A stretch of 55,755 nucleotides of DNA from Eledone cirrhosa (lineage: Eukaryota). The DNA lies in assembly GCA_964016885.1 (NCBI GenBank), contig CAXHJY010000500.1, positions 1 to 55,755 on the forward strand, in the 5' to 3' direction. The position numbers and the translations under genes are program-made. This document shows, piece by piece, positions 4,501 through 52,621 of this stretch. The notes under the pieces were generated by a model. It did not search any database. It was not told the DNA's origin and saw only the letters and a program-made list of their open reading frames with translations. The number at the start of each line of letters is the position of its first letter. Position 1 is the first letter of the stretch.

Positions 4501-5260
4501 GGAAGGAGGAGGGAGGAAAATAGAAAAGAAAACTCACATCATCATTACAACACATTTAGTTGAGTACAGATATAGTGTGTATATGTGTGTATATATATAT
4601 ATATATATATATATATATATATATAGAGAGAGAGAGAGAGATACGGATATAGTGTATATATATATATATAGAGAGAGAGATATGGATATAGTGTATATAT
4701 ATATAGAGAGAGAGATATGGATATAGTGTATATATATATATAGAGAGAGAGAGAGATATATGGATATAGTGTATATATATATATAGAGAGAGAGAGATAT
4801 GGATATAGTGTATATATATATATATATATATATAAAGTGTGTGTGGAATGTGGTGTAGAGTGTTTAAGTCTGATTACACCATAATTTGTTGATTGAGGGG
4901 ATAAAATACAACATTGACAACCAACTAATATAGATATCAAAACAAGTACATATGTCATTACCACAGCAGAGGTCCGATGAGCTTTTGATTCCAGAGTCGG
5001 GCCAGATCAATACAGATCAAACCTTGAGCTGATCAATAGCGAAACGTGCATCACACCTCAATAAACATAATGAAGACATAATAAATTGTCCTTTTTATTA
5101 TATATATATATATATACGTGTGTATGTATATATATATATATATATATATATATATATATATATATACACACATACACACACACATATATATTATTAGTAC
5201 AGATTAAAGTTAAGCAAATAATTTCTGCTTACACCCTATACAGGATCTTTTGATTGTATA

Positions 5261-5610
5261 TCATCATCATCATCATCATCATTTTATGTCCACTTTTCTC
5301 TACTTGCAAGGGTGGGACGGGGTCCTATTCAGCACCGCACCTCTCCATTCGTCACGGTCCCTCATCATCTCCTCTGTGACCTTCAGCAATCTGAGGTCAG
5401 CTCTCACCACCTCCGCCCATGTTTTTCGTGGTCTTCCTCTATTGTGTCTTCCTTCTACTGGGATTTCTTGGTACATCTTTACCCAGCGGTCATCCTCCAT
5501 GCGCATCACATGTCCATACCATCTCAGCCTTCTCTCTCGCACACTACAGCCTATCCCTTTTATACCCAGTTTCTTTCTCAACTCGTCCATGCTTGGTCGT
5601 TCACGCACAT
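5261..5610 (-). mobile_element. RTE LINE 3' end fragment with (GAT)n tail
   Basis: ORF RERRLRWYGHVMRMEDDRWVK...GRPRKTW followed by the tail. Confidence 0.88.
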
Positions 5611-5638
5611 TGTATATATAAGAATTTGTGAAACTTAC

Positions 5639-5758
5639 TCAATGTTAGCTTCATTACTGCCAATAATTCCTCTATAGACTTCTTCAACCTTTTTGTTGAG
5701 TTTCTCCAGCAAGTAGTTCTGGTCAGATGACTGCATGCTACCACTAGCTGAGAACATT
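5639..5758 (-). CDS. CFAP100: CFAP100-like exon 11 (KMFSASGSMQSSDQNYLLEKLNKKVEEVYRGIIGSNEANI)
   Basis: accag| acceptor and |gtaagt donor; 120 nt, phase 2 to 2; L..LNKKV.EVYR..IG.NEANI pattern. Confidence 0.92.
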
Positions 5759-6460
5759 CTGGTGAAGAGAACAACATAGATGTGTGTATGTGTGTGTGTA
5801 TACATGTGTATGTGTGTGTGTGTGTATACATATATGTGTGTGTATGTGTGTATACATATATATGTGTATGTGTGTGTGTATACATATATGTGTGTGTATG
5901 TATGTGTGTATACATATATATGTGTATGTGTGTGTGTATACATGTGTATGTGTGTGTATGTGTGTATACATATATATATATGTGTGTGTATGTGTGTATA
6001 CATATATATATATGTGTATGTGTGTGTGTATACATATATATGTGTGTGTATGTGTGTATACATATATATATGTGTATGTGTGTGTGAATATATATATATA
6101 TATTGAATACTTAGCTGAACAATGTCTTACCAGTTTAAACTCACAACTGCTAATATATATTTACTATCAAAACAGTCCGCTGTTTCCAGGCGCACCTTCG
6201 TCACTCTAAATAAAGACCCTCTCTCCTCAACACGGCCATCTTTAAATTACCCTAGAAATAGCCGTCGAAACTGCTTGAGCTCGGCCGTCGGGGTCATACT
6301 TTTTCCTGTATATATATATATATATATATAATGTAGGAGGTGAGTTTTATTGTAGTACAATAAAGCAATGCAGATATCGGATAAGAAGCACTCTACAGTT
6401 TGTAGGACTGGAGTATACATAATATAAGATCAAAAGATGGTTAAAGGAGTTCCATGTATA

Positions 6461-6523
6461 TTATTATGCGCATTTCAAAAACAAACATCATCATGCAATA
6501 ATATTTGTGTTTTCATCAGATAA
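6461..6523 (-). ncRNA. Type I hammerhead-like motif with canonical core
   Basis: TTAT-CTGATGA-aaacacaaat...gtttgttttt-GAAA-TGCGCA-TA-ATAA on the minus strand. Confidence 0.55.
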
Positions 6524-48743: not shown

Positions 48744-49329
48744 ATATATATATATATATATATATATATATATATAGTGTATATATATATGTGCGTGTGT
48801 TTCTTATTGGCAACATGACCCTCCCAAAGTATAACAATATCGGTTTCAACACACGATTTCAGATAAAGAATCTTGCTAAACAAATTCAGAAACGATATAT
48901 ATATATATATATATATATATATATATATATATATATATATATATATATATCATACACAGCTAGTATACGTGGTGTATATATTAACGGGTTTGCAATGAAC
49001 TGGTTGAGTTGTATACATACTCTATATTTTACGTTATGGATTCCATATATTTGCTTCATCGCGAAACATGTTATATACACTGTTATATACACTGTATACA
49101 ATGTTATATACACTGTATACAATGTTATATACACTGTATACAATGTTATATACAACGTATACAATGTTATATACAACGTATACAATGTTATATACAACAT
49201 ATACACCTTCTATACATTGTATACATTAAGGTATTTGCTATAGTTTGTGTATTTTATGAAATACACTTATGATTTGCTTTGACAGACCTAAGTTCCAATG
49301 TTATAAAGAAATATATCTACCAATAAAGA

Positions 49330-49640
49330 AATATATATATAAAGAGAGAGAGAGAAGACGTTATAGTAAACATGGGAGAGTGAGAGGGAGACAGACAGAC
49401 CTATATATAAAGAGAGAGAGGGCGTTATAGTAAACATGGGAGAGAGAGAGAGACAGACCTATATATAAAGAGAGAGAGAAGACGTTATAGTAAACATGGG
49501 AGAGAGAGTGAGAGAGACAGACCTATATATAAAGAGAGGGCGTTACAGTAAACATGGGTGAAAGAGAGAGAGAGCTTTATAGTATACATGAGAGAGAGGT
49601 GAGAGAATGAGAGAGAGAGAGAGAGGCAGATTTACAGTAA
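49330..49640. repeat. GA-rich minisatellite of about 55-62 bp; a 21-bp repeat lies at 49069-49203
   Basis: gttatagtaaacatgggagagag..cagacctatatataaag recurs 5-6 times. Confidence 0.8.
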
Positions 49641-51771
49641 ACACGCGCACGTGAGAGTAAGAGAAAGATAGGAAGAAAACAAGAGAGAGAGAGAGAGAGC
49701 GCAACAGCGAGAAAGAGAAAGGCAAGAAGAAAACAAAAGAGAGAGAGAGAGCGCGCAATTGGGAGAAAAAGAGAGAAAGACAGGAAGAAAACAAGAGAGA
49801 GAGAGATCGACAGGGAGAAATAGAGAGAAAGATAGGAAGAAGAAAACAAGAGAGATAAAGAGTGACAGGGAGTAATAGAGAGAGAGAGAGAGGTAGGAAG
49901 AAAATGAAAGAGAGAGAGGGTGTGTGTGTATATGTGAAAGAGAGGAGAGAATGCGGACATTTGATTGGTTGTTTACGAGAGTCATGTATCGGCTGTCGTG
50001 TGTCGACAATAATGGAAGCTTCTGATTGGCTGCGACAGCTTTCTTATATTACATAACTTAACAACAAAGCATTTCAAATCTGATTTGATTCCACAGCGAC
50101 AACAGCTCCGTGAAAAAATGTCAAAATTTGCTAAACTTGCAAAAATCAGGGAAGAATTTATAAATGATAAAGGAAGGAAGGAAAGAAGGAGTAGTGAAGG
50201 GGGGGGGAGGACATTATTGAGAAGGAAGGGGAGGACATCATTGGAGGGGGGGGGCGTAGGACATGATTGAGAGGGAGGGGGGAAAATAGAGAAAAAGTGA
50301 TGAAGTGAGAGAGAGATTAAAGTGTGTGTGTGTGTGTGGGGGGGGGGGATAGTGTCACAAAAGAGAGAGAGAGAGAGAAGTGAGACACGGTAAGCGGAGG
50401 AGAGAGGTGGAACGATGTGTGTGAGAAAGTAGGAAGTAGGGCCAGAGAGAGAGAGAGAGAGAATATTCGAAGAGAGGACTTCGTATGAAATCATCAGGAC
50501 TGCCGGTTACCCCCAATACAGCTCGTTTTCCCAATACCTTATCCAGTTATTGACGCCCTGGGGCGAGGTATATTGTCTTTAAAGCGTAGAAATATCCTAG
50601 ACTAGACTCCCGGTAGACAACTTATGACGACCCCCCCCCCGTTCTTGCTTTCTTCGTATTCCCACTGCATTTTAAGTTACCTTAAATAGCAAACTACACA
50701 GCCATCTCTCTCTCTCTCTCTCTCTCTCTATATATATATATATATATAACGAAGGAAATGTGGTAAGGAACCAGGTGGACCATAACGCACCAAAGTACTC
50801 AATACTTAGGGTAGTAGAGTGGGTATAGGAAAAGAGTCAGGACCCCCGTTTCGACGGCTAATTCTGGACTAAAAAATTTTTTAGTCCAGAATTAGCCGTC
50901 GAAACGGTTTGAGCTCAGCCGTCGGGGTCCTACTCGTTCCTATATATATATATAAATATATAGGAACGAGTAGTGTGTGTAGGAACAATAAACATAGAAG
51001 TGAGGTGTAGGTAGAGAGTTAGTTCATTGTTTTACGATCGTTCCAGGGTAGATTGAACGGTGGGGATCGATGTATCAACTAGCATGGTAGTGGTTAATTT
51101 ACTACCCATTACTCGTCTCGAAGACCCTGTCCTCCTCAGAAACACTAAACTAGACGTAAATGACTCTGTAACCTGGACTGATTTTCTTCGGGGATAACTT
51201 AGGGCCGTGACCCCCCCCCCCACACACACAAGAACTACTGGTCACACTGGTTACTCTGGTCACACTGCCGAATAACGCCGCAACTGCCCTTCATAGGATA
51301 TATTGAGTTCTAACAACAACGTTATCAGCCCCACCACAACCAGGTGGACTCCGATATATATAATATATAATATAAACAAAGAAAGTGTTGTAAGCAACAA
51401 TATGGACCATAAGGCACCAGAGTACTCAATACTTAGGGTAGTAGAGTAGGTAATAGGAAAGAGTCAGGACCCCGAAGGCTGAGCTTCCAAAAATGATACA
51501 TCCCCCCCCAAAAAAAAACAACAACCATGGCTATGTGTTGGGCCGGTGTTACCCCTGGCATACTTACAGTCACTCTAACAACATTCCTTGTTTCTTCTCT
51601 TTTTTTCTTTTACTTTCTTACCCTCATAAGAGATAGCGGAAGATAAATACAAGTGGTGTGTATATAAACACCATTAATCTGGATACCTGATTATGGAATT
51701 TTACGCGATGCCCCCCCAAACACACACACACACACACACACACACACACACACACACACACACACACACAC

Positions 51772-52035
51772 AGCCCCGGCGGACGGGATGGAGAAGGCGT
51801 TCCCTCGGAGGACGGTAAGGGAGACGCGCTGGAAAAGCCACTCCAACTCGCTCGCGGGGTTAACACTTGCGGCGGCTGGCCAGCTCAGCGCCTATGGTGG
51901 TGAGTAAGGGTGTAGCCCTGGGGCCGAGGACACCAGTAGTCTCCACTGCCAAGGGTACAACCGCAAACCTGTCGGAGAACGACCGGTATTTGAGTAGCTT
52001 GGCCTCCTCAGTCCGACATGCAGCAGAACCTGGGT
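51772..52035 (-). mobile_element. Second CRE-like fragment
   Basis: Nucleotide-similar to 39350-39610; abuts (CA)n. Confidence 0.7.
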
Positions 52036-52574
52036 TGTTGTAAAGATTTCGCTCTTAACGCCTGATCGGTTTGGCATCCACAGGTCAGATTATCTTACAC
52101 CCTCCCCTTTGTTCTACAGGCCATCTCAGCCCCTCCCCACCTGGTATGTATGTATATATATATATATATATATATATATATATATATATACATACATTTC
52201 TCCACACACAGACTATATCAATCATATAAAGACTTTGCCACCAGATCTACCAACCTAACACTCTTATTTACCTACCTAAGTGCCTCTACCACACATATCT
52301 CTCTGCCACACTATATAAACAAGACGCACATGCGTGCCACACATATAACATTTGCACTATATAACCACTTATCTTCATGTTGTACTTTAACCTATATCTT
52401 TGATTTTTGATTGTACCTATTAATATAAATGTAATCTCAAAGTGTGTACTGCCAATCTAAATTCTGTAATGAATGTTGACCCACAATGTTTGAATATGTA
52501 TCAATGTTTGAATATGTGTTGGTATGTCTCTCGGCTGAAAAGGAGGTCATATAACTGTCCATGCATTAATAAAT

Positions 52575-52621
52575 TGCTCCGAAGAATCCAAACCTCGGTT
52601 TGGAGGAAACAGCTGTAAGCA
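52575..52621 (+). ncRNA. Atypical minimal type I hammerhead ribozyme motif
   Basis: TGCT-CCGAAGA-ATCCAAACC tc GGTTTGGAG-GAAA-CAGCTG-TA-AGCA. Confidence 0.65.

Follow-up and report, generated by a model that had tools for sequence, protein, structure and literature searches.

The window analysed here is the whole stretch of 55,755 nucleotides (nt) at positions 1 to 55,755 (forward strand) of contig CAXHJY010000500.1 of the octopod Eledone cirrhosa (assembly GCA_964016885.1), and it is made up of animal intron sequence in which (TA)n and short repeats abound. A conspicuous component of it are eight short motifs, numbered here H0 to H7, which lie in and around the introns of the octopod CFAP100 gene and which, judged from their letters, are predicted to fold as type I hammerhead ribozymes with a short palindromic helix III. 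They are discussed below as putative 3' ends of Penelope-like elements (PLEs). An initial annotation of this DNA had placed six such motifs at 4969-5059(+), 6461-6523(-), 23360-23484(+), 24437-24547(+), 36863-36950(-) and 52575-52621(+), and all six are present there. That list was incomplete, as H0 and H7 have to be added, together with two inverted 3' halves at 23311-23322(-) and 24264-24275(-).

Along the window, H0 (3586..3628, +) has a CTGAGGA core, an 18-nt stem II, the string GAAA-GAGC-TT, a 4-bp stem I and AATAAA at 3629. H1 (4969..5059, +) has a CCGATGA core (4974), a 60-nt stem II region, GAAA-CGTGCA-TC, a 5-bp stem I and AATAAA, and its element (4835-5098) is flanked by TA runs on both sides. 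H2 (6461..6523, -) shows a CTGATGA core (6519), a 36-nt stem II hairpin (folding z -3.4), GAAA-TGCGCA-TA and a 4-bp stem I, and H7 (14930..14989, -) a CTGAAGA core, a stem II region of 25 nt that pairs weakly (z +0.2), GAAA-TATATA-TA, an 8-bp stem I with a G-U pair and AATAAA. The core of H3 (23366..23529, +) is CCGATGA (23372), followed by a stem II region of 82 nt whose basal helix has 8 bp, GAAA-CAATTG-TT (23461-23472), AATAAA and a 57-nt tail that runs into (TA)n. Close to it, H4 (24437..24547, +) combines a CTGAAGG(A) core (24442) with an 82-nt stem II region (z -2.4), GAAA-CATATG-TT, a 5-bp stem I, AATAAA and a tail that reaches (TA)n at 24590. The last two motifs both lie between TA runs: H5 (36871..36944, -) has a CTGATGA core (36940), a 47-nt stem II region, GAAA-CATGTG-TC, a 4-bp stem I and ATTAAA, and H6 (52575..52621, +) a CCGAAGA core (52579), a 7-bp stem II hairpin within a 20-nt region, GAAA-CAGCTG-TA, a 4-bp stem I and AATAAT.

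The core CUGANGA...GAAA...UH is exact in half of the motifs (H0, H2, H5 and H7). Three others (H1, H3 and H6) carry the U4C change (CCGA), and the core of H4 can equally be read as A9G or as a 1-nt insertion at position 7 (CUGA-AG-GA). The letters read therefore bear out the three CCGA cores and the one CUGAAGG of the initial annotation, and its count of five motifs with 35-85 nt in stem II agrees with the regions of 60, 36, 82, 82 and 47 nt, next to the 20 nt of the sixth. A stem I of 4-8 bp forms in all eight motifs, in H1 with an offset, as 2 extra nt precede the stem. The H3 copy in the window has 12 bp, a perfect inverted match of 23360-23371 with 23473-23484 that is private to this copy: the family sequence upstream of 23366 differs, which leaves the family a stem I of about 6-7 bp. 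The stem II insert folds at z <= -2 in six of the eight motifs, the exceptions being H7 and the H3 copy.

Five of the eight motifs have a perfect 6-nt palindrome after GAAA. Four of these had been called perfect from the start, and rightly so; the description of CGTGCA (H1) as a near-palindrome is to be corrected, since it forms one of three Watson-Crick (WC) pairs plus a G-U. The hexamer of H5 (CATGTG) is one transition away from CACGTG or CATATG (of CpG type in the case of CACGTG), that of H1 two CpG-type transitions away from CGCGCG, and decay of perfect palindromes would explain both. The loop of H0 is not palindromic; its 4 nt may be a 6-nt palindrome minus 2 nt. H0 came from a scan for 4-nt loops, a setting run without a shuffle control, and the part downstream of it recurs, at 82%, at 48801-48894, where TA runs flank it.

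Short stems (4-5 bp), a permissive spacer, the relaxed rules that H0 and H1 require and the lack of an Rfam match would all be expected of chance matches in AT-rich repeat DNA. We have compared the window with shuffled sequence. A strict descriptor (core, stem I of at least 4 WC pairs, stem II of at least 3, and GAAA-N6-UH with a closing pair) has 4 matches in the window, against none in 300 dinucleotide shuffles in blocks of 200 nt and 1 in 300 in blocks of 1000 nt, so that a frequency in dinucleotide-shuffled sequence similar to that of the window, which the initial annotation had named as refuting it, is not seen. This descriptor is partly post hoc, admitting CCGA and A9G since both had been named before; H5 was found with a relaxed stem II rule and H1 with the 2-nt offset of stem I. 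As the descriptor is tuned to the named cores, the palindrome provides the cleaner independent test. Without regard to the palindrome, the descriptor returned 5 matches in the window, 4 of them perfect palindromes and 1 with two of three pairs, whereas none of its 19 matches in 300 shuffles was a perfect palindrome. As an outside control we have used the pattern of core, CANNTG and AATAAA, for which a stem I of at least 4 bp was found in none of 48 matches in viruses and in 3 of 118 in metagenomes (the latter from 14 of the 64 parts of the collection), and a palindromic centre in 12 of 48 and 23 of 118, about the one in four that is expected. The exact family pattern had no match in the metagenome contigs, and scans of the window for palindromic loops of 2-8 nt with one core mismatch gave a single extra match, with a 3-nt loop, at chance level. 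Together with the pairing restored at the family level in H3 (see below), these controls refute chance for the set, a reading to which we attach next to no probability, while H0 taken alone could be a chance match.

The same search turned up, in an unrelated metagenome contig of 1.6 kb (L079), a clean hammerhead of the same design (114-170, -) with a CUGACGA core, a 6-bp stem II, CAAUUG, a 5-bp stem I and AAUAAA; inspection of that contig by eye found no recognisable reverse transcriptase (RT) frame.

The motifs of the window are unrelated in sequence, as had been claimed: once the TA runs are cut away, 27 of the 28 pairs among the eight motifs and their flanks are within the range of shuffles, and the lone exception is an AT-rich match of 31 columns. 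An early similarity among the flanks was rejected, being due to the TA runs and gone with their removal.

A way to see past a single worn copy is to compare it with its family. This has been done for H3, over the stretch 22950-23529, with the contigs of run X1 and the reads of run X7, the depths of which do not represent a copy number. To this stretch aligned 2699 X1 contigs and 6214 X7 reads, most of them less than 95% alike, which makes H3 a dispersed family of many copies. Reads leave the stretch at a common 3' end, 269 of the X7 reads passing at 23528 into a TA-like consensus. At least nine joints (9 of the 15 among the joints listed) link the inverted arm that precedes H3 to the forward arm at other breakpoints, each joint resting on one contig or one read start, and two other contigs join the forward arm at 23367-23368; these few cases suggest that truncation happens preferentially where stem I has its base.

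The differences between the window copy and its family (40 of 122 rows) are positions at which, in each row, the share of the other letter is some 80% or higher in at least one run. Of these rows, nine lie inside the stem II insert, and the core (23372-23378) and GAAA-CAATTG-TT (23461-23472) have none. Since changes private to the copy appear as majority-letter rows, the C4 of the core is not private to the H3 copy, and U4 could be present in a minority or even a moderate share of the family. Besides, outside its tandem repeats the window is poor in CpG (observed/expected 0.57), so mutation should tend to change CCGA into CTGA and not the reverse. The suggestion that CCGA is not decay is supported for H3, one of the three CCGA families, where it may be a tolerated variant. 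Within stem II, the majority letter at 23457 gives the basal helix a G-C pair in place of a G-U, and with all nine majority letters the insert is predicted to fold at -20.1 instead of -12.8 kcal/mol (z -2.2), a gain matched by 2.2% of 1000 random sets of substitutions of the same type. The long arm is therefore likely a structured feature of the H3 family, of which the window holds a worn copy. As to the family consensus that the initial annotation had asked for, the majority letters in these rows of the H3 family leave the core as it is and pair stem II better than in the window copy.

Two further observations concern the reads. In run X5, which carries a second organism label, at least two contigs with 4 and 5 other letters cover 23443-23528, that is, the 3' half of H3 and its tail, and in run X6 nothing aligned to 22950-23529. 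Piles of X7 read ends at 23469 and 23317 (also 22987) were considered as ribozyme ends and rejected; they fall on AATT sites and X7 is a restriction-site associated DNA sequencing (RAD-seq) library, so we take them as restriction cuts.

A run of at least four TA units follows within 210 nt in seven of the eight motifs, compared with 32% of background positions (binomial p 0.002, with a cut-off picked after the distances had been seen). A strict AATAAA lies within 10 nt past the cleavage site in five (H0, H1, H3, H4 and H7) versus 1.4% of the background; adding the ATTAAA of H5 and the AATAAT of H6, a post hoc choice, the count is seven of eight versus 2.8%, at 3-9 nt past the site. Two of the eight, H3 and H4, have an inverted and 5'-truncated copy directly upstream. 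That of H3 (23092..23360, -) comprises part of stem II, GAAA-CAATTG-TT, the tail and some 160 nt more of repeat sequence, all covered by family reads; that of H4 (24025..24319, -) holds the 3' ribozyme half and downstream sequence and is 93% identical to 24487-24572 over 86 nt. Both begin inside stem II and extend past the (TA)n junction of the forward copy. An adjoining inverted copy, truncated at its 5' end, is the insertion layout described for PLEs (Craig 2021, PMC8557442).

On account of these inverted partial copies, the (TA)n ends and the many dispersed copies of the H3 family, we read the motifs as 3' end-pieces of several PLE families, inserted at TA repeats and since decayed, with a probability of roughly 0.8. 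The common 3' end and the spread of copies were seen for H3 alone, the proximity to TA in seven of the eight. This is indirect support for the several PLE families of the initial annotation; the link to PLE RT or GIY-YIG frames that it proposed was not found.

Several results weigh against this origin. Pfam detected no PLE RT or GIY-YIG domain in two sets of 15 and 71 frames (the second mostly from 197 candidate frames), a motif grep of all 197 candidates gave no PLE-like frame, and a 51-aa frame behind the inverted H4 copy had no relative in a protein search against longer proteins. The RT fragments found in these frames are all of other kinds and none stands beside a motif: they are broken pieces of long interspersed nuclear element (LINE) type, with RVT_1, zf-RVT and PHD-like matches, at 18991-20189, 26017-27975, 39725-40186, 40433-42888 and 48124-48582. 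An absence of RT and GIY-YIG would be expected for short 3' remnants. No hammerhead in the window was matched by Rfam at its gathering score, with a tRNA as the only match, and none over H6 at E<=10; the Rfam models also miss the clean L079 hammerhead and thus are insensitive to this form. Stem II of H7 folds no better than shuffles, and the read comparison covers one of the eight families (H3), with the 40 of 122 rows described above. Finally, the Hydra-clade rows of Craig 2021 (PMC8557442) have 7-8 nt between GAAA and UH where seven of our motifs have 6 and one has 4, and owing to this mismatch we give no PLE clade. The Rfam miRNA matches in the window were set aside as driven by microsatellites, none among the best 150 of 383 rows being a hammerhead.

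The lack of coding sequence linked to any motif would also be accounted for if these were monomers of non-autonomous retrozymes that lack long terminal repeats (non-LTR retrozymes), spread as circles or tandem arrays through a PLE enzyme, and not the truncated ends of coding PLEs. Retrozymes, which are short non-coding repeats with a weak helix III, known also from molluscs, typically have canonical type I motifs in which helix III has 1-2 bp and a tetraloop (PMC7229834; bioRxiv 10.64898/2026.07.22.740005); solo monomers are common, and retrozymes have been proposed to derive from the pseudo-LTRs (pLTRs) of PLEs (bioRxiv 10.64898/2026.07.22.740005). They are defined by tandem units, though, and the window holds no head-to-tail unit with a motif; inverted junctions and a fixed (TA)n end fit integration of the PLE type. 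The two explanations differ just in the existence of a coding parent of the same sequence, and we give the retrozyme explanation a small chance only.

If the motifs are PLE ends, how would they have worked? As a hairpin their helix III is predicted to be unstable (+2.4 to +5.2 kcal/mol), and as a self-duplex to be stable (-3.2 to -11.1 kcal/mol), which fits the double-hammerhead dimer model. In a merged dimer, stem I pairs strands from both copies. Following published work, a single transcript of the parent PLE would carry the motif twice in tandem; the palindromes of both copies would pair, giving a helix III of 8 bp, the copies would exchange their stem I strands, and the dimer would cleave after UH, slowly and probably with the help of proteins, processing the RNA of the element. 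The AAUAAA 3' of the site would place this cut shortly upstream of the poly(A) tail. The merging of helices III by two tandem copies, as well as the slow cleavage of PLE hammerheads, have been reported (Cervera 2014, PMC4209133). For a lizard element, cleavage is described as assisted by protein and dispensable for insertion in vitro. The solo copies seen here are probably inert, being without a same-strand partner in the window.

A more daring version would see in the motifs an unrecognised octopod branch of PLE hammerheads in which several families have a weakened core, with U4C fixed, a structured arm of 36-82 nt in place of the short stem II loop serves as a platform for the protein of the element, and a protein-gated cut, with AAUAAA 3-9 nt past it, strips the poly(A) tail and frees the template end. 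We hold it to be tentative and rather unlikely. If it were true, such motifs would evade both the published descriptors and Rfam, and the counts of PLE ribozymes in molluscs would be underestimates.

The initial annotation had also proposed that the palindrome of each family acts as a dimer-partner code, selected to bar activation in trans between families. Seven motifs do have seven different hexamers, and the homoduplexes of the perfect palindromes, at the energies given above, compare with 20 of 21 cross pairs predicted to be weaker than -4.3 kcal/mol. Any set of differing palindromes would discriminate in this way, however. The four hexamers that have CA..TG in common cross-pair at 6-7 WC of 8, and CATATG with CATGTG reaches -7.0 kcal/mol, the same as the CATATG homoduplex. 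Moreover, stem I, which is exchanged in the dimer, is itself specific to each family, 4 bp being attained by only 4 of 56 cross pairs, so no code in the palindrome is needed. The dimers described in the literature arise in cis, from copies in tandem, two of the three Aedes families in Fig. S3 of Cervera 2014 have the same palindrome while the third differs, and a literature search on hammerhead heterodimers in retrotransposons found none. The code is thus unsupported, as nothing in the analysis shows selection for it, and we consider it improbable.

The gene around the motifs is identified by a CFAP100-like exon with DUF4200 (frame 21703..21951, -), whose best match, a CFAP100-like protein, comes from Octopus bimaculoides (95% over 66% of the query; 89% in Argonauta), and by a second DUF4200 exon, a Pfam match within 20417-20611(-). 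Three of the eight motifs are on the strand of this gene, as would be needed if the host had co-opted them to cut or regulate the CFAP100 pre-mRNA. The other five are antisense, all three CCGA motifs among them, the H3 copy has at least nine departures from the family majority that weaken its fold, and no motif has a dimer partner of its own family in the window, which makes co-option very improbable.

Other repeats surround the motifs. Self-inverted, hairpin-like repeats, some of them resembling miniature inverted-repeat transposable elements (MITEs), are found at 23589-23961, 37955-38048, 52946-53119, 24672-24792 and 30246-30554. Minisatellites consist of 45-mers (7603-8410 and 29608-30004), 48-mers (13208-13801 and 16236-17212) and a 25-mer (11723-12837), and those at 7603 and 29608 begin exactly where a copy of a frequent short dispersed repeat ends. 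At 1676-1846(-) there is a single C2H2 zinc-finger-like stretch, under the Pfam cut-off. Three older repeat copies have a common tail (3400-3600, 24915-25110 and 54785-54980, all -). The copy at 24915 contains GAAA-CCTTAGG-TA, with a palindrome of an odd 7 nt as in Hydra-clade hammerheads, although an intact 5' core is absent, and its tail has a 14-nt string in common, by eye, with a published Hydra-clade 3' end.

At least seven motifs missed by Rfam in 56 kb suggest that octopod genomes contain a large number of them that have gone uncounted. With a core change that is common in a successful family although it reduces activity in vitro, a conserved long arm and an adjacent AAUAAA, these motifs are natural test cases for the role of PLE hammerheads and for their possible dependence on proteins.

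As a class, dead PLE ends with dimer-type hammerheads have been described already; what looks unusual here are the stem II inserts of 36-82 nt and the U4C change in three families. To speak of an atypical architecture, as was done initially, was an overstatement, because metazoan type I hammerheads usually have 1-2 bp in helix III and a palindromic loop of 2-4 nt, and just two features, the long stem II and U4C, are not seen among the published representatives compared. Short palindromic helices III are described as usual in that group by Cervera 2014 (PMC4209133), whose Fig. S3 gives 56 representatives of many families with palindromes of 4, 6 and 8 nt, those of Aedes differing among families of one genome. 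Our motifs resemble the PLE pLTR hammerheads of that study (Drosophila virilis, D. willistoni, Aedes, shrimp and rotifer) in being type I, in the 4-5 bp of stem I, in GAAA-palindrome-UH and in the AU-rich 3' flank. They also resemble them in the presence of several unrelated families in one genome, mostly as solo copies with some pairs on opposite strands, and in the dimer-dependent design. In 9 of the 56 rows of Fig. S3 we have counted by hand an AAUAAA past the site, where the accompanying text notes an AU-rich flank. The differences are the cores, which in the 56 representatives are CUGA or UUGA and never CCGA, against three CCGA here; the length of stem II, whose loop has by eye up to about 9 nt there and whose region reaches 36-82 nt here, the descriptor of that study limiting what it could find; and the linked open reading frame, which was not found here.

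Families of PLEs that target (TA)n, Hydra and Naiad, are recorded in Octopus, with a Hydra-clade family in Octopus bimaculoides (Craig 2021, PMC8557442). With the hammerheads of the Hydra clade and PLE-X in that study, our set has in common (TA)n targeting and UU cleavage sites, and H3 also the U-U with which stem II begins at its base. A 6-nt palindrome as found here is present in PLE-X1_cBra, and two PLE-X hammerheads of spike moss have a loop II of about 30-35 nt, while CCGA cores are in none of the Hydra and PLE-X rows. Six GAAA-hexamer-T strings from the window were searched in the supplement of Craig 2021 and none occurs in it. A link to Naiad was rejected on the same lack of string matches and on the 3' ends of octopus Naiad, which by eye are unlike those of these elements. 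A diminished palindromic stem III and cleavage as a dimer, as predicted here, also characterise, as cited in two reviews, the small PLE hammerhead variants of Lunse, Weinberg and Breaker (2016/2017). A literature search on octopus Penelope hammerheads returned nothing on the motifs described here.

For the CCGA core a parallel comes from a viroid. In a type III ribozyme all single mutants of the CUGA turn have low activity in vitro (PMC9901934), and a literature search for U4C in hammerheads led to Perreault 2011 (PMC3088659) alone, where a viroid variant with this change has a lower activity in vitro that is sufficient in vivo. In the viroid U4C is a rare variant, whereas here three animal repeats, unrelated to one another, carry it, and at least one of these families has it commonly.

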